Positions 20,528 to 52,911 of a DNA stretch of 64,000 nt are shown here, in pieces. This DNA is from Candidatus Microgenomates bacterium (GTDB lineage: Bacteria; Patescibacteriota; Microgenomatia; JACQLA01): the NCBI GenBank assembly GCA_016204255.1, contig JACQLA010000005.1, positions 68,339-132,338 on the forward strand, in the 5' to 3' direction. The notes beneath the pieces were generated by a model. That model worked only from the letters and a program-made list of their open reading frames with translations. It was not told the DNA's origin and ran no database searches. The translations under genes and the position numbers were made by a program. The stretch's first letter is position 1; each line of letters starts with the position of its first letter.

Positions 20528-20545
20528 ATTTATCTAAAAAAGCCA

Positions 20546-20582
20546 TTAGCACTTATATAACACGACTGCTAATTTTTGTCAA
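20546..20582 (-). promoter_or_regulatory. hrcA promoter (TTGACA-N17-TATATA) overlapped by a CIRCE operator
   Basis: The CIRCE element is ttagcactt-N9-gactgctaa at 20546-20572. On the minus strand the -35 box TTGACA is at 20582->20577 and the -10 box TATATA is at 20559->20554. Confidence 0.8.
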
Positions 20583-20817
20583 GCCCCGAGCCTTTTATGG
20601 CGCAGACAAAAATGTAGAGGCGATTTCAGCCTCGTCTCTTTTGTCAAGAGACAAAAAGCTTACCACCAGCATCACCTTTACAGGTGATGATTTATCAGCC
20701 TTGGCAAAATATGTTAGTGCCGGAGTAATAATTCTACAAACTTCTCATCCAGTCATTTCAAAATTAAAATCTGCTTTTACAAGATTGGGGTTACCTACTC
20801 CTAAAGGATTGTAGTGG

Positions 20818-20920
20818 CTGTCAGTTTGCATAAAAAGTTAACACTTTTTTTAGCCTCAAATTTGCAAATTTTGCAAACTCCCGAGGCTAGAAATGTTTAC
20901 CATTTCGTGCAAACTGACAG
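20818..20920. repeat. nested three-tier hairpin element, copy B (paralog at 421-523)
   Basis: The outer 13-bp inverted repeat is ctgtcagtttgca (20818-20830) / tgcaaactgacag (20908-20920). The inner inverted repeat is tagcctc / gaggcta. The loop carries tttgcaaa twice. The element ends 4 nt from the murJ stop codon. Confidence 0.75.
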
Positions 20921-20924
20921 AAGT

Positions 20925-32940: not shown

Positions 32941-35850
32941 CTAATCAGTATCACAAAGAAGCTTATACTCGCAATATTTACAAAGCTCGCTTTTGGTACA
33001 ACGGAAATCAGATTGAGCGATTTTTTCCGCCCAAGAAAAAATTTCTTCTTTGGCTTTTTCCAACTGTTCTTTAGTCCGCACTGTTGTTATCTTTTGGCTA
33101 TTTTCAAAAAAATAAAGGCTCAAAAAAACTTCCTCCGGTTTTTTGCCTAATGGCGGCTCCAGCACTTCAGTGGCGGCCAAAGCGTATATCGTCAACTGTA
33201 AATTTTGATCAACTTCCTTTTGACTGGGAGGACGACTACCGGTTTTATAATCAATAATTTCAATTTTTCCATCTCCTAAGGAATCAACCCGATCAAGCCT
33301 TCCCACAACTCGAAAACTCCTCAGAGGGAAAACAAAAGATTTTTCCAAGGCCAACGGGGTGATTTGAGAATCCTTTGTTTTTAGCCAAAACTCGTGCAAA
33401 AATCTTTCTCCCTGTTGAAAGAGTAAATCTTCATGCTTTTTACTTTTATAACCCTCCCCAACCCAGTTTTCCTTAAGTAGGGCTAAAAGTTTCTCTTCTC
33501 CCGGATTTTTATCAGTAATTTTCAACCGGTAAAAATCCCGCAACGCCGCATGTAAACTAATGCCAAAAGATTGAGCAGATGAGGGAGGGGTGGGAATTTT
33601 TAAAATAAATTTTAATTTATAATGAAGAGGGCAATTCATAAAGGCCTCAATTTGAGAGTACGAAAGATAGAGAGGTCGAGAGTTCAATCTATTAACCGCT
33701 GTTTCCGGCTCCACCGGCTTAGCCCATTCTAAAAAAGAGAGTTGTTTACTTGAGGCGTTGATTTTTTGTTTCCCAAATACTTCTTCTCCTAGCGCCTCCC
33801 CTACAAAGGGCGAAATTTTTCTTTCACGTTTACCCTCACCATAAAAATTGGCCGATGTTAAAAAAAGTCGATCTTTAGCTCTGGTCATTCCGACATAAAA
33901 AAGCCTGCGCTCTTCCTCTAAATGAGCATCGCCCTCGGGCAGAATTTCTTTTATTAAATCCTGGGGAATGGGAATTTGCTCCTGGCGTTCAGTTGTAGGA
34001 AAACGCTGGGCAACCAAATTAACTAAGAAAACTACCGGAAACTCAAGGCCCTTAGAAGAATGAACTGTTAAAAGATTAACGGCGTTTACTTCCGCCCAAT
34101 CGGTATCTGAAGCCTGGGGTGATTCCCCCAATTCCTGTGACATTTCAATCCAGTCAACTACCGCCGAAACGGCAGCATCCTCGTGGGTAACTTCATAACT
34201 TTTAATTTTTCCAAAAAACTTAGAGACGTTTTGGGCACGCTTTTCATCCTGGGCATTTTTATACACCGTCAAACTAGATAAAAGACCGGAGTCGGAAAGG
34301 AAATAGTAAAGGATTTGGCCAGCGCTTTCCTTGGATAAAAGTTTCAGATGACGATTTACCATCGCCACAATTTTTTCTAATTTTATTTTTGTTTCCTCAC
34401 TGATAATCGGTCTGGTGTTGGCTATTAAGCGGCCATTTTCTTTTCCGGTGGCCAACTCACAGGATTCAAGTAAGGAAAGGTTGGTTTTTTTAGCGAAGCT
34501 TGTCAATGCCGCTACGTCCCGGGCGGAAATCTCAAAAATATCCATTGCTAAAACCCGATAAAAAGCAACCGAGTCTTCAACGTTATACAAAACCTTAAGG
34601 TAGGCAATTAAATCCTTTACCTCCGGCTGACGGAAAAGCATTCCCGGTCCTAAAAATTGATAGGGGACCCCCGCACGAACCAAAGCCCGGGTAAAAGGTT
34701 CGGCGTGAGAATTGGCCCGAAATAAAATAGCAAAATCTTTAAATTCATAGTTCGTTTTTTTAAGTTGTTTAATCTTTCGGGCGATTTCTTCAGCTTCATC
34801 TTCGACTCGCTCCGCATGAATCCACTCCACCTTTTCCTCGTCCACTTTTCTCATCCGCTTAAGATTTTTACTAATCCCCAGTTTTACTTCCAGGGTATCG
34901 GGATCGTTAAATTTAATCAGGCGATGAGCGTGATCAAGAATAGTTTGGGTTGAGCGATAATTTTTGGTCAAAATAACTTGTTTGACTCTCTTGTACTCCT
35001 CCATAAATTGTAGAATATTGGAAATAGCCGCCCCGCGGAATTTATAAATTGACTGAGAATCATCCCCAACAACCGTCAAATTGGGATTTTCCATAGGAGG
35101 AGCTAAGATTTTTAAAAGATTGTACTGGGCAAAATTAGTATCTTGGAACTCATCAACCAAAACATATTTGAATTGCTTTTGATATTGACTCAAAATATTT
35201 GGTCTGGCGCGAAAAAGTTTAAGGGTATTGGCTATTAAATCGGCAAAATCAGCCATTCCTCCCTTAGTTTTAAGCTCTTCATAAATTCGGTAGGCCTTGA
35301 CCAATTCTAATATTTTTTTCCTTTCTTCCTCTGGCAGATTTTGACCCTTAGTAAAATTTAGGTATTCTTCCGGCTCGATATCTTCATCTTTGAGCCGGGA
35401 AAAATGCTGGAGCATCCCCCCAATAAATTTATTTGGGTTGCCTAAAGGACGGAAGTAATTCAGCTCAAATTTAAAAAGACTGGCTCGTAGAAAAATTATC
35501 GTCTCTGCCTCCGTCATTAAGCGATAATCGGGGCTAAGACCAATATGGACTGCCTCATTCCGAAGGACCCGATCGCAAAAGGAGTGGAAGGTGGAAATCC
35601 ACATCTGAGTGTAGCCGTAAGGCATAGCTATATCGACTCTCTCCTCCATTTCCCGCACCGCTTTTTCAGTAAAAGTGAGGGCTAAAATTTCGGCCGGGTG
35701 GGCCAGATTTTGGGAAATCAACCATTTAATCCGCTCTGTTACCACCGTTGTTTTGCCGGTTCCGGCGCCGGCAATTATTAGAAGGGGACCCTTGTCATGT
35801 TTTACCGCCTCCAGTTGTTCATCATTCAATTTTTTTTCGCCGTTGCTCAC
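32941..35850 (-). CDS. UvrD-type helicase fused to a C-terminal Fe-S PD-(D/E)XK (AddB/Cas4-like) nuclease
   Basis: The helicase motifs AGAGTGKTTVV, VDEFQDTN, VGDDSQSIYKFRGA, TVHSSKGLEF and YVGMTRAK are present. The C-terminus has NCPLHYK, GRLDRVD, IIDYKTG and C-x5-C-x2-C-x5-C (CTKSELCKYCEYKLLC). Confidence 0.85.
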   Translation of the reverse strand: MSNGEKKLNDEQLEAVKHDKGPLLIIAGAGTGKTTVVTERIKWLISQNLAHPAEILALTFTEKAVREMEERVDIAMPYGYTQMWISTFHSFCDRVLRNEAVHIGLSPDYRLMTEAETIIFLRASLFKFELNYFRPLGNPNKFIGGMLQHFSRLKDEDIEPEEYLNFTKGQNLPEEERKKILELVKAYRIYEELKTKGGMADFADLIANTLKLFRARPNILSQYQKQFKYVLVDEFQDTNFAQYNLLKILAPPMENPNLTVVGDDSQSIYKFRGAAISNILQFMEEYKRVKQVILTKNYRSTQTILDHAHRLIKFNDPDTLEVKLGISKNLKRMRKVDEEKVEWIHAERVEDEAEEIARKIKQLKKTNYEFKDFAILFRANSHAEPFTRALVRAGVPYQFLGPGMLFRQPEVKDLIAYLKVLYNVEDSVAFYRVLAMDIFEISARDVAALTSFAKKTNLSLLESCELATGKENGRLIANTRPIISEETKIKLEKIVAMVNRHLKLLSKESAGQILYYFLSDSGLLSSLTVYKNAQDEKRAQNVSKFFGKIKSYEVTHEDAAVSAVVDWIEMSQELGESPQASDTDWAEVNAVNLLTVHSSKGLEFPVVFLVNLVAQRFPTTERQEQIPIPQDLIKEILPEGDAHLEEERRLFYVGMTRAKDRLFLTSANFYGEGKRERKISPFVGEALGEEVFGKQKINASSKQLSFLEWAKPVEPETAVNRLNSRPLYLSYSQIEAFMNCPLHYKLKFILKIPTPPSSAQSFGISLHAALRDFYRLKITDKNPGEEKLLALLKENWVGEGYKSKKHEDLLFQQGERFLHEFWLKTKDSQITPLALEKSFVFPLRSFRVVGRLDRVDSLGDGKIEIIDYKTGSRPPSQKEVDQNLQLTIYALAATEVLEPPLGKKPEEVFLSLYFFENSQKITTVRTKEQLEKAKEEIFSWAEKIAQSDFRCTKSELCKYCEYKLLCDTD

Positions 35851-35959
35851 CGCCTAATTTTACCATAAAAAATGCTTCGGTCTGATTAAAATTCGATTTC
35901 TTGCTGTTTTCTTACACATTTTTGATTGCTTTTTGACTTTAAAAGTGCAAATTATAACC

Positions 35960-36073
35960 GTGGGGGCAAACGTCTGGAAACATTTAAAAATTAAAATTTA
36001 ACCGGGCGCCCCACACTTAAAGTACAACTCTCGCTATGTGGAGATGATTCCCTAAGGCGAGAGTTGTTTTTTT
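35960..36073 (+). ncRNA. candidate small RNA or cis-regulatory leader (long hairpin + intrinsic terminator)
   Basis: Hairpin 1 pairs gtgggg (35960-65) with ccccac (36009-14) and cgtctgg (35971-77) with ccgggcg (36002-08, two G-U pairs), closing a 24-nt AU loop. Hairpin 2 is the terminator at 36024-36073. No plus-strand gene lies upstream. Confidence 0.35.
36024..36073 (+). terminator. rho-independent terminator-like hairpin
   Basis: A perfect 11-bp stem, acaactctcgc / gcgagagttgt, is followed by a run of 7 T. It sits 15 nt before the ATG at 36089. Confidence 0.6.
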
Positions 36074-36088
36074 GCTATACTTAGCATT

Positions 36089-36648
36089 ATGACCTTATGG
36101 AGAAGTTGGCAGTATAAGAATCTCACGATCTTTTCTTTAGGCCTCGCGGTTGCCTTCGCGTTATCAAGGCTTGAAGGATTCCATAATTTTTACTACATCT
36201 GGGCGGCTTTGATTATCTTGGCGCTTTTATTGCCGGAGGGCTTTTTGTTTCGACTTTTACCGTTGGCACCGGCATCATTATCCTTTTAGTCCTGACTCAA
36301 ACTTTAACCCCCCTGGAAATAGCTGTAATTGCAGGGCTGGGGGCGGTTTTGGGTGATTTTACCATTTTCCGGCTTGTTAAAAACAACCTGACAAACGAGT
36401 TAGTAAACATTTACAATCATTTTGACAGCAATCATCATTTCAAAAGACTCCTTCATTCAAAATATTTCAGCTGGACCTTGCCGGTTGTCGGTGCGCTTAT
36501 TATCGCCTCGCCTTTGCCGGATGAATTGGGCGTAAGTTTAATGGGAATTTCTAAGATGAAAACTTATCAGTTTTTAATTATTTCCTTCATCTTAAATACC
36601 ATCGGAATATTTCTGGTTGTTTCAGCCTCTTTGGTTTTAAAACCATAG
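36089..36648 (+). pseudogene. DedA/YqaA-like membrane protein gene split by a frameshift at a T5 run (or a homopolymer sequencing error)
   Basis: The track ORFs 36089..36289 and 36349..36648 are in different frames. The second frame is open back to 36187 and reads FLLHLGGFDYLGAFIAGGLFVSTFTVGTGIIILLVLTQTLTPLEIAVIAGLGAVLGDFTIF. The two frames meet at ttttt (36187-36191). Confidence 0.55.
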
Positions 36649-36750: not shown

Positions 36751-38970
36751 ATGAAGCAGACCGTCCTTGCTGTTTTTTTTATTGCCATAATTGTCAGTCT
36801 TGTCGCGGTTTCTTTTACTATAAATCAGGTGGGTCAAGAAGAAAAACGGCTAAGTGTTGATCTCCAACATCGCTCAACGCTTCTTGCAGAAAGTCTTAGG
36901 GAAACCATCGAACCAAACTTTATAAATAAATCAGATAAGTATTTGCAGGATGTTGTAGAAAAGTTTGCGAATAAAGAAAGATTTGCCGGGCTGGCTGTCT
37001 ACGACAATAAAGGAATTGTCATTGCTATTTCTTCTAGTTTGCCCAAAGAAATTTCGGAGTCACAAAAAATTGCTTCTGATGTTATGGATGGCGACAAAGC
37101 CAATGGCGACTTTATCACCTTTGGTGATAAAAAAATGTACCTTTTTGCGATTCCTCTTCGTGATGAAAAAAGCGTAGTTGGGGCATTGATGATTGCACAA
37201 AATGCCGGGTATATCGACTCACGCTTGCAAGAAATTTGGAGAAACAATTTAATAAGATTATTTGCGCAGGTTTTTCTCCTATCAATTGCCGTGATTCTTT
37301 TTTTACAATGGGTTATTTATAAACCTATGCGGAATCTGGTGGAATCTTTAAGGCTGGCCCGATCAGGAGCAAGGTCCCTTGCTATTCCAATCCATCCATT
37401 TTTCCAACCACTGGCTAAAGAGATTTCAAACATTAATCGCAGTCTTATAGAAGCGCAGTTAAGCGCCAGCGAGGAAGCAAGAATGAATCTGGAAAAATTA
37501 GATTCTCCCTGGACCGAAGAAAGATTAAAGGAATTTGTAAAAGATATCTTGAAAGATAAATCAATCGTTGTGGTTTCAAATAGAGAACCATATATTCACA
37601 CTAAAGTCGGGAATAAAATTAATTATTATTTTCCGGCAAGCGGCATGGCAACCGCAATTGAACCAATGATGCAGGCCTGCGGAGGAACTTGGATTGCTCA
37701 CGGAGGCGGAGATGCCGACAGACTCACAGTTGATAAGAATAATGAACTCCAGGTCCCGCCTGATGAACCAAAATATACCCTAAGACGAGTCTGGCTAAGC
37801 GAGGAAGAAGAAAAGGGATATTATTATGGTTTTTCCAACGAAGGAATGTGGGCTCTGTGCCACATAGCACATACTCGGCCTATTTTTAGAAAAAACGACT
37901 GGGAGGAGTATAAAAAGGTGAATGGTAAATTTGCCAAAACTGTGCTTACCAAGATACGAGATCTTCAAAACCCCATCATCTTGATTCAAGACTTTCATTT
38001 CTCTCTTTTGCCGCGAATGATCAAAAATAGCAGGCCCGATGCAACAATAGGACTTTTTTGGCACACCCCTTGGGTCAGTGCAGAGTCCTTTAGTATCTGC
38101 CCCTGGAGAAAAGAAATTTTAGATGGTATGCTGGGCGCCGATTTAATCGGCTTTCATATTCAGCTTCATTGCAATAACTTTATTGAAACCGTTGGAAAGG
38201 AGCTTGAATCTTTGATTAACTTTGAACAATTTACTATCACTCGAGATGACCATATTTCATTAATAAAATCTTTCCCCATCAGCATTGCTTTTTCTAACGG
38301 GAAGTCACAACAGCAAAAAGAAAACTTCGATAAGGAAGGACTTTTAAAAAGCTTGGGGATAAAAACAAAATATATCGGAGTTGGGGTTGACCGCCTGGAT
38401 TACACAAAAGGAATTTTAGAGCGCATCAAAGCAATTGAAATTTTTCTTCAAAACTACCCCTCATATCGGGAGTATTTTACTTTCATTCAAATCGCCGCAC
38501 CAAGCCGGAGTAAAATAAAAAGGTATCGGGAGTTTGCTCAAGAAGTAGAGAAAGAGGTAGAACGTGTTAACTCACGCTTTAAAATAAAAAATTGGAAACC
38601 GATAATTCTTATAGAAAGACATCACAGCCATGAAGAAATTAATCAGTTTTATCAACTCGCTAATTTTTGCTTGGTGACGTCTATCCATGATGGGATGAAT
38701 TTAGTGGCCAAAGAATTTGTTGCCGCAAGAAACGATGAAATGGGTGTGCTTATTTTAAGCCAGTTTACTGGTGCTTCACGGGAACTAAAAGACGCCCTGA
38801 TTGTTAATCCATACAATGGAGAACAAACTGCTGAAGCAATATACACTGCTTTGTCTATGAGGGCTTCCGAACAAAAAAAGCGCATGAAAAAATTAAGGGG
38901 AACCGTTAGAAACTATAATGTCTACCGTTGGTCAGCTGAGTTTTTGAAAACTTTAGTAAATTTAAGCTAA
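36751..38970 (+). CDS. otsA: trehalose-6-phosphate synthase (GT20) with N-terminal TM-sensor-TM-HAMP-like module
   Basis: From about residue 270 the sequence is a canonical GT20 OtsA core (VVVSNREPY, WIAHGGG, GFSNEGMWALCH, IQDFHF, LFWHTPW, GVDRLDYTKG, DGMNLVAKEF, ILSQFTGA). Residues 1-270 contain two TM helices flanking a ~150-aa extracytoplasmic domain, then an amphipathic HAMP-like linker. Confidence 0.87.
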   Translation: MKQTVLAVFFIAIIVSLVAVSFTINQVGQEEKRLSVDLQHRSTLLAESLRETIEPNFINKSDKYLQDVVEKFANKERFAGLAVYDNKGIVIAISSSLPKEISESQKIASDVMDGDKANGDFITFGDKKMYLFAIPLRDEKSVVGALMIAQNAGYIDSRLQEIWRNNLIRLFAQVFLLSIAVILFLQWVIYKPMRNLVESLRLARSGARSLAIPIHPFFQPLAKEISNINRSLIEAQLSASEEARMNLEKLDSPWTEERLKEFVKDILKDKSIVVVSNREPYIHTKVGNKINYYFPASGMATAIEPMMQACGGTWIAHGGGDADRLTVDKNNELQVPPDEPKYTLRRVWLSEEEEKGYYYGFSNEGMWALCHIAHTRPIFRKNDWEEYKKVNGKFAKTVLTKIRDLQNPIILIQDFHFSLLPRMIKNSRPDATIGLFWHTPWVSAESFSICPWRKEILDGMLGADLIGFHIQLHCNNFIETVGKELESLINFEQFTITRDDHISLIKSFPISIAFSNGKSQQQKENFDKEGLLKSLGIKTKYIGVGVDRLDYTKGILERIKAIEIFLQNYPSYREYFTFIQIAAPSRSKIKRYREFAQEVEKEVERVNSRFKIKNWKPIILIERHHSHEEINQFYQLANFCLVTSIHDGMNLVAKEFVAARNDEMGVLILSQFTGASRELKDALIVNPYNGEQTAEAIYTALSMRASEQKKRMKKLRGTVRNYNVYRWSAEFLKTLVNLS

Positions 38971-41747: not shown

Positions 41748-41788
41748 TCCTATAGTTTAAATCTATCTTCGGAAAGTTGTCAAATTAA

Positions 41789-41956
41789 TGTCATTTCGAA
41801 TGGAATGAGAAATCTAAAAAGGGCGCATCTAAACGATGCCTAAATGCGTCTGTCATTGCGAGGAATCTCGCCAGAGGCGGATGACGAAGCAATCTAGATC
41901 GGGTAGATTCCTATATCAAGATTGCCAACGCCTCATTTTATTCGGCTCGCAATGAC
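41789..41956. repeat. GTCATT-type palindromic elements, copy b (half element 41789-41815 + full 105-bp element 41852-41956)
   Basis: The arms gtcattgcgag (41852-62) and ctcgcaatgac (41946-56) form a perfect 11-bp inverted repeat. The inner pairs are gaggcg/cgcctc and gcaatct/agattgc. The half element tgtcatttcgaatggaatgagaaatct is 25/27 identical to 43092-43118. Confidence 0.8.
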
Positions 41957-42005
41957 GTAAAGGAGCAAACTATAGGGACTCAAAAGATAATACTGGATTG
42001 GGGGA

Positions 42006-52853: not shown

Positions 52854-52884
52854 ACCATCCGTAAAGTAGTTTAACCATTTAAAA

Positions 52885-52911
52885 AGCGCTCCCGCGGGAG
52901 CGCTTTTTTTA
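52885..52911. terminator. bidirectional rho-independent terminator (M23 peptidase / groEL)
   Basis: The perfect 20-nt palindrome agcgctcccgcgggagcgct is flanked by aaaa on the 5' side and ttttttt on the 3' side. It lies between two convergent genes. Confidence 0.85.

Follow-up and report, generated by a model that had tools for sequence, protein, structure and literature searches.

A putative short non-coding transcript ending in an orphan intrinsic terminator ahead of a membrane-protein gene in a Microgenomates genome

Introduction

Rho-independent terminators, including the orphan ones that end intergenic small RNAs (sRNAs), are recognised by a stable stem-loop that runs, on the transcribed strand, directly into a U-rich tract. 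Attenuation riboswitches, among them those of the fluoride, preQ1, guanidine, ZTP, Mn2+ and Na+/Li+ classes, place a structured element and then a terminator within the 5' untranslated region (5' UTR) of a gene. The subject of this report is an element with likenesses to both, found at positions 35960-36073 of a stretch of 64,000 nucleotides from assembly GCA_016204255.1 (contig JACQLA010000005.1) of an uncultured, ultrasmall Candidatus Microgenomates bacterium, the whole of which is referred to as the window. The element lies inside the 238-bp spacer (35851-36088) between two divergent genes, one for a helicase and one for a membrane protein, and comprises a bulged hairpin, called hairpin 1, and a terminator-like hairpin. 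The explanation favoured here, at somewhat less than even confidence, is a short non-coding transcript of the plus strand, ended by a true terminator that insulates the promoter of a leaderless membrane-protein mRNA.

With rho-independent terminators the element shares a perfect 11-bp, GC-containing stem, directly followed by six to seven U and preceded by an A-rich stretch, and it resembles the clear gene-end terminators of the same window. It differs from them in being fed by no annotated plus-strand gene or recognisable promoter; moreover, its predicted hairpin is long (44 nt), internally bulged in its upper part, and abuts the -10 box of the next gene. Like the attenuation riboswitches, it combines a structured element with a terminator just upstream of a membrane-protein gene. 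In contrast to them, it has no Rfam match, antiterminator, conservation or covariation, and the conserved, predicted promoter of the gene lies downstream of the terminator.

An extended -10 box that precedes the start codon by about 6-8 nt is a signature of leaderless mRNAs that is established in Actinobacteria, Deinococcus and archaea. For promoters of this kind see Cortes et al. (2013), cited in PMC12641261. The membrane-protein gene shares with them a TGnTATACT box 6-9 nt before ATG or GTG and the absence of a Shine-Dalgarno (SD) sequence, and the helicase gene and many other genes of the window are alike. However, this likeness belongs to the flanking genes and not to the hairpins, and it is known here from sequence rather than mapped in Microgenomates. 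In a further type of promoter, a -10 element that is symmetric supports transcription in both directions, and the commonest distance between the two start sites is 18 bp (Warman et al., bioRxiv 10.1101/2020.01.31.928960). The spacer contains a core, AATTATA, that can be read as a -10 element on both strands, in which positions 2 and 6 pair and for which an 18-bp spacing of start sites is predicted; it departs from the described promoters in its imperfect plus-strand hexamer, which lacks a usable -35 element. Literature searches returned no report of leaderless expression in bacteria of the Candidate Phyla Radiation (CPR), and nothing relevant on DedA-linked riboswitches or on sRNAs and riboswitches in CPR bacteria or Microgenomates. 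To our knowledge, the regulatory RNAs of CPR bacteria are essentially uncharted.

Two hairpins and a U-tract

The element consists of two structures on the plus strand:

35960-36014, plus strand: hairpin 1, formed by GUGGGG/CCCCAC (6 bp) and CGUCUGG/CCGGGCG (7 bp) around a GCAAA bulge, with a 24-nt AU-rich loop
36024-36073, plus strand: intrinsic-terminator-like hairpin, with an 11-bp stem that is perfect and continues into an upper helix, then a U-tract at 36068-73

In the terminator stem, ACAACTCTCGC (36024-34) pairs with GCGAGAGTTGT (36057-67) over 11 bp without a mismatch. It is extended by an upper helix of U.G, U-A and G.U pairs and a GGA/UCC cap around a 6-nt loop, giving 17 pairs in all. 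The transcribed strand thereby carries a stable stem-loop and, right after it, U-rich sequence, as intrinsic termination requires. An earlier account drawn from the letters of the DNA alone (the sequence-only reading) had described a 55-nt hairpin with 6 + 7 bp around the bulge, a 9-nt linker and a perfect 11-bp stem followed by T7, ending 15 nt before an SD-less ATG with no plus-strand gene upstream. This description holds in full: the linker occupies 36015-23, the ATG at 36089 lies 15 nt past the T-run and has no SD sequence, and the neighbouring upstream gene is on the minus strand. It needs a single refinement, in that the first T of the run at 36067-73 is also the last base of the stem, which leaves six U after the stem.

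These structures are present and statistically strong, and the second of them is a putative terminator of transcription in vivo. The 136-nt region folds with a z-score of -5.09, which none of 200 shuffles equalled. The terminator alone reaches -23 kcal/mol (z -5.31), with pair probabilities of 0.95-1.0, and hairpin 1 alone reaches -18.3 kcal/mol (z -2.85; two of 200 shuffles as good), with probabilities of at least 0.996 for six of the seven pairs of its inner stem and about 0.23-0.25 for its outer stem. When the intergenic regions of the window were scanned for structure by z-score against mononucleotide shuffles, the element ranked in the top four among 185 overlapping 110-nt windows drawn from all 24 regions of at least 60 nt. 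Its terminator is the strongest single hairpin with a T-run in the 64 kb.

Because any palindrome must fold on both strands, the minus strand folds nearly as well (-42.5 kcal/mol, z -4.93, versus -45.8 kcal/mol for the plus strand). The G.U pairs of both hairpins exist only in the plus-strand RNA, which favours a transcript of that strand. Two of the seven pairs of the hairpin-1 inner helix are of this kind and become A.C mismatches on the minus strand; two more lie in the upper terminator helix. A plus-strand terminator is also favoured by the classical terminators that stand at gene ends elsewhere in the window, from which the organism appears to use intrinsic termination. For example, the terminator at 52881-52910, AAAAAGCGCUCCCGCGGGAGCGCUUUUU, which separates convergent genes, is a textbook bidirectional one.

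Putative promoters at the start codons of both flanking genes

Each of the two flanking genes carries an extended -10 box beside its start codon:

36073-36081, plus strand: extended -10 box TGcTATACT, 7 nt ahead of the ATG at 36089, its TG overlapping the end of the terminator U-tract
35857-35865, minus strand: extended -10 box TGgTAAAAT, 6 nt ahead of the helicase GTG (35850), found in a pattern scan of all long open reading frames (ORFs)

The pattern of TGcTATACT followed by a start codon is unique in the window (0 expected). Homologues of the membrane-protein gene were compared in 80 loci from GTDB species representatives and four from Logan/ENA. Of 78 homologous loci, 38 have TGnTATACT at 6-9 nt ahead of the start codon, against about 0.6 expected by our own estimate, and the box itself occurs in 45 homologous loci and in the window. 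Overall, roughly half of 78-82 loci keep the arrangement. It is near-invariant, as TATACT and not TATAAT, across the VTT homologues of Levybacteria and of Roizman-, Woese-, Gottesman-, Shapiro- and Collierbacteria, and a TTT before the TG is common in these promoters. Within the window, a -10-like box, often with the TG extension, precedes the start of many genes by 5-9 nt (examples at 14797-, 15421+, 27765-, 30411-, 35850-, 36089+ and 43618+, the sign giving the strand), and SD motifs are rare.

The flanking genes therefore combine a -10 box 5-9 nt upstream, the lack of an SD sequence and retention in orthologues, and both are likely made as leaderless mRNAs. More broadly, the frequency of such boxes suggests that leaderless expression is widespread in this Microgenomates genome. 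Two consequences follow for the element. Since so many window genes look leaderless, the missing SD sequence at ATG 36089 is normal here; and since TGcTATACT lies downstream of the terminator, the terminator would be upstream of the membrane-protein promoter and not in a leader.

The same position allows a reading at the level of DNA, in which the 11-bp inverted repeat, with arms 22 bp apart and spanning -22 to -65 of the membrane-protein promoter, would be the operator of a dimeric regulator, and hairpin 1 would act likewise in the -35/-10 spacer of a minus-strand promoter. The repeat does overlap the -35 region of the leaderless promoter, and small inverted repeats are similarly placed upstream of TGnTATACT in some homologues (e.g. 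tcaagc-N9-gcttga in locus L001). However, a 33-bp centre-to-centre spacing with perfect 11-bp arms is atypical of operators, and the sequence is common to no homologous promoter. Extension of both helices by G.U pairs is meaningful in RNA only, and a U-tract after the repeat is a terminator hallmark. An operator is thus considered decidedly improbable.

The attenuator reading

If transcription instead began upstream of hairpin 1 and ran into the membrane-protein gene, the element would be a riboswitch or attenuator leader, with hairpin 1 as the sensor (of a ligand, a protein or translating ribosomes) and the terminator as the switch for read-through. A structured element ahead of a terminator so close to an ATG invites this explanation. 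In addition, the nearest relative with an alignable spacer, locus L083, has a promoter (TTGACT, 16 nt, AATAAT) that would give the orthologue a leader of about 75 nt. The position of the element argues against it: the element would have to lie within the 5' UTR, whereas in this gene family TGnTATACT, conserved at 6-9 nt ahead of the start codon, puts the probable start site at the AUG, past the terminator.

Pair probabilities, constrained folds and the complementarity of the terminator arms to upstream sequence revealed no significant, mutually exclusive antiterminator. The best pairing of an arm with upstream sequence, which is a possible antiterminator, joins GUGGGGG (35960-66) to CUCUCGC (36028-34) over 7 bp, three of them G.U. 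However, this helix is at chance level (about 1.6 such matches expected by our own estimate), and the 3' arm has equally long chance matches. Forbidding the 3' arm of the terminator costs 17.7 kcal/mol and yields no competing fold, and in nascent RNA folded before the 3' arm emerges, the 5' arm is essentially free. The sequence-only reading had proposed that the 3' strand of hairpin 1 could pair alternatively with the terminator loop. This CCACA/UGUGG pairing exists (36011-15 with 36037-41), but it touches only the loop and cannot open the stem, and it was rejected as an antiterminator on that ground.

Nor does the upstream structure look like a sensor. With one AU-rich loop, hairpin 1 has the form of a simple hairpin rather than that of a multi-helix aptamer, and no conserved aptamer with covarying helices was found upstream of about 85 homologous genes. 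Rfam 15 gave no match at gathering score anywhere in the window. A permissive scan of 35840-36120 (E up to 10) returned only Phe_leader at 14.1 bits (threshold 55, E 8.6) and a fungal small nucleolar RNA (E 9.7), so the earlier statement that the element fits no known riboswitch class is borne out. Taken with the promoter evidence, these results make a leader highly unlikely.

A predicted short transcript

Between the promoters of the two genes, the spacer contains the following candidate promoter elements:

35933-38, plus strand: TTGACT, a -35-like hexamer that overlaps the palindrome ACTTTaAAAGT (35936-46)
35950-56, both strands: symmetric -10 core AATTATA, read as TATAAT (35956..35951) on the minus strand and as AATTAT (35950-55) on the plus strand

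As the sequence-only reading had observed, TTGACT has no -10 box at canonical spacing; TATAAC lies 14 nt and AATTAT 11 nt away. The TTGACT block is shared with L083, where its counterpart is TTGACTTTTAAAGT and where TTGACT, a 16-nt spacer and a TG-extended AATAAT form a good plus-sense promoter, a point in favour of a plus-strand transcript. The palindrome ACTTTnAAAGT is kept in the nearest relative (window 35936-35946, L083 1429-1439, L084 1130-1140) and is a candidate regulator-binding site, because it is among the few spacer blocks shared with that relative. In a promoter scan, the best match of the spacer was on the minus strand, where TTTCCA (35980..35975), an 18-nt spacer and TATAAT agree with consensus at 10 of 12 positions. 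The plus-strand AATTAT matches four of the six -10 positions and keeps the key A2 and T6. A further weak plus-strand -10 candidate is TAAAAT at 35887-92. Small ORFs of the spacer (22 aa from TTG 35933/35926; 18 aa from GTG 35945) were considered as leader peptides or toxins and rejected, being not conserved in L083 (8 codons) and lacking start signals.

The strength of the leftward match raises the question of whether the structure serves the minus strand. TTTCCA-18-TATAAT (35980..35951) could be a real helicase promoter with the hairpin DNA as its upstream context, or the hairpin could be a weak bidirectional terminator against antisense transcription from the membrane-protein side; an A7 on the minus-strand 5' side of the stem, as in bidirectional terminators, would suit the latter. 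However, the stem is followed on the minus strand by ACUUUAAG, with three U only, the 4 kb to the right contain no gene on the minus strand, and the helicase has its own -10 box beside its GTG. A minus-strand role is the least probable of the readings weighed here.

A short plus-strand transcript is therefore preferred, and would arise as follows. Because both genes appear to carry a promoter at the start codon, neither would need the approximately 205 bp in between. There, the symmetric core could fire leftwards, using TATAAT and the TTTCCA -35 element, and more weakly rightwards, with divergent starts predicted near 35944 (minus) and 35962 (plus). The rightward RNA would begin near G35960-63, at the foot of hairpin 1, fold hairpin 1 and the linker, and end at the terminator (36024-73). 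Its predicted size of about 105-115 nt agrees with the approximately 115 nt proposed earlier. Because the U-tract overlaps the TG of the extended -10 box, the terminator would halt plus-strand transcription arriving from upstream exactly where the core promoter of the membrane-protein gene lies, and the mRNA of that gene would thereby still begin at its own AUG. Read-through RNA would otherwise bury the AUG behind an SD-less leader and occlude the promoter.

The sequence-only reading had left a choice between a short independent RNA and a riboswitch-like leader. The short RNA stands, provisionally, as the best available of the two, whereas the leader is disfavoured by the -10 box of the gene itself, by the lack of an antiterminator and by absence from the nearest relative. 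Within the favoured picture, roughly one third of the weight falls on the short RNA having a function of its own. A stronger proposal is a genuine new small regulatory RNA, either an sRNA acting in trans, its 5' hairpin followed by a terminator, or a protein- or ligand-responsive terminator that meters transcription over the leaderless promoter of a DedA-family gene; this is considered improbable.

The flanking genes

The spacer is bounded by two genes:

32941-35850, minus strand: UvrD-type helicase with a C-terminal PD-(D/E)XK nuclease, 969 aa, assigned by Pfam domains, with a GTG start at 35850
36089-36648, plus strand: VTT/DedA-like (TVP38/YdjX-type) membrane-protein gene, 186 aa after a -1 shift at the T5 run 36187-36191

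As written, the membrane-protein gene is split into ORFs of 66 aa and 99 aa. If translation passes from frame 1 to frame 3 by a -1 shift at AAT-TTT-TAC in the T5 run, a protein of 186 aa is restored that is colinear with all homologues across the shift (NF|LLHLGG). The repaired protein is 75% identical, over 100% of its length, to 186-aa proteins of Levybacteria and other Microgenomates, and its homologues number 1,814 in all; its match to VTT_dom (E 1e-4) is below the Pfam cut-off. The start codon at 36089 is secure, because M1 is invariant in an alignment of 27 sequences. The helicase is 100% identical to a protein recorded under 'Candidatus Microgenomates bacterium'. An identical helicase is found on seven contigs, yet the database contains no intact near-identical 186-aa membrane protein (best match 75%). 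Consequently, the frameshift is probably not an error of assembly but real, and the gene would be either a pseudogene or expressed through slippage at a low level.

The gene that follows, at 36751-38970, encodes 739 aa with an N-terminal membrane segment, a weak match to a Cache-like sensor and a fused GT20 trehalose-6-phosphate-synthase domain. It has a TATAAT-rich promoter region of its own about 18-30 nt ahead of its ATG.

Comparison with related loci

The lineage stands alone, in that the nearest helicases are 72% and 70% identical to that of the window, and the nearest membrane protein is 75% identical. The adjacency of the two genes is not conserved, because none of the 80 loci has the helicase near the membrane-protein homologue and the closest helicase relatives (72% and 70%) have other neighbours. 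Only one searched locus carries the element, L081 (GCA_964420235.1, contig CAYQSR010000003.1), an identical assembly that matches the window across the element. Beyond it, the spacer can be aligned only with L083 and L084, where two extra genes lie between the membrane-protein gene and the helicase. The blocks common to the window and these loci are TCTGATT, TTTTGATT, TTGACTTTnAAAGT (with the palindrome ACTTTnAAAGT), AATWATAA, GTGGG, GGAAACATTT and a degenerate -10/start region. Relative to L083, the window has two extra segments, namely 13 nt (GGGGCAAACGTCT) that create the 5' arm of hairpin 1, and the 44-nt terminator hairpin.

Several of these and other results weigh against a functional transcript. 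Neither L083 nor L084 has the terminator hairpin or the 13-nt segment of the hairpin-1 arm, and the L083 region is unstructured (z +1.0). The sequence-only reading had named a spacer not conserved in relatives among the outcomes that would count against it, and in the only relative that can be aligned the structure is absent. By blastn, the 80 loci with VTT homologues showed no similarity to the element, and none of 84 upstream regions has a comparable hairpin and terminator. A covariance model of the element, run on 87 sources (563 kb) of related loci, found only itself. A scan of JGI metagenomes with the conserved blocks TTGACTTTNAAAGT, N10-40, GGAAACATTT, and not with the hairpins, returned four chance matches in unrelated coding sequence. 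In viral contigs, a scan for the stem gave four unrelated high-GC phage palindromes and a scan for hairpin 1 gave nothing. Furthermore, the spacer has no good plus-strand promoter, TTGACT being mis-spaced and AATTAT matching at only four of six positions, and the downstream gene is frameshifted, so that selection on protection of its promoter may be relaxed. The comparison gives no sign of a conserved small-RNA gene, and it is a weak test, with the nearest relatives only 70-75% identical in the flanking proteins.

The same results open the way to an explanation without RNA function. The element could be a neutral, lineage-specific palindromic insertion, produced through local inverted duplication, an indel or the insertion of a small unit like the repetitive extragenic palindromes (REP) or miniature inverted-repeat transposable elements (MITE), with the T-run belonging to the T-rich stretch before the TG of this promoter family. 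Both structures are clean indels in an otherwise alignable L083 spacer, TTT is common before the TG of homologous promoters, homologues of the structure are absent from all loci searched by blastn and covariance model, and the locus may be decaying, as its frameshifted downstream gene indicates. On the other hand, the stem is single-copy in the 64 kb and in 563 kb of related loci, and neither it nor hairpin 1 has a second copy in the window, where a REP or MITE would be expected as dispersed copies; this is not visibly a repeat family. An 11-bp stem with an extended helix and U6-7 is also an unusually complete terminator for an accident (z -5.3), and CPR genomes are compact. A neutral insertion is therefore doubtful, while carrying appreciable weight.

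As far as present data go, the structure is lineage-specific, and the lack of conservation favours a young element of this lineage. It is best filed as an unconserved orphan intrinsic terminator or putative small RNA.

Other motifs were seen among the homologous upstream regions. One resembling TAGCCTCAAAAA(A)CTATATCAAAC recurs 34-67 nt before the starts of VTT homologues in L003, L008, L049, L053 and L086, with similar sequences in L055 and L083. AGCCTCA is present in five of 81 upstream regions, against about one expected, and is absent from the window. Many of the GTDB representative metagenome-assembled genomes (L001-L080) are titled 'uncultured Gammaproteobacteria/Pseudomonadales bacterium' (TPA_asm), although the gene is clearly of Microgenomates type; these names are probably placeholders or wrong.

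Other structured regions of the window

Two further intergenic regions on the minus strand are structured, the first of them very strongly. This one, of 397 nt at 20528-20924 with its core at 20818-20920, folds at -129 kcal/mol (z -7.7). Three hairpins lie within an outer helix of 13 bp, CUGUCAGUUUGCA/UGCAAACUGACAG. Rfam offers nothing credible for the region, which may be a composite terminator or a structured RNA that has escaped annotation. The second, at 41748-42005, folds at -69.5 kcal/mol (z -4.3) and contains the terminator-like GCGCAUUUAGGCAUCGUUUAGAUGCGC followed by CCUUUUU.

Implications

The element is a singleton without comparative support, and its importance is modest. If the short RNA is real, it would be among the very few candidate non-coding transcripts pinpointed in Microgenomates, and it would exemplify the use of a terminator, in a compact genome whose genes are leaderless, to hold the 5' end of an mRNA at its AUG. 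The locus also carries a caution for this lineage, where an absent SD sequence and an upstream hairpin should not be taken as a riboswitch. The more solid and general result concerns the promoters. The presence of TGnTATACT near the start codon across a gene family, together with similar boxes in many genes of the window, suggests that leaderless expression is widespread in this CPR lineage.

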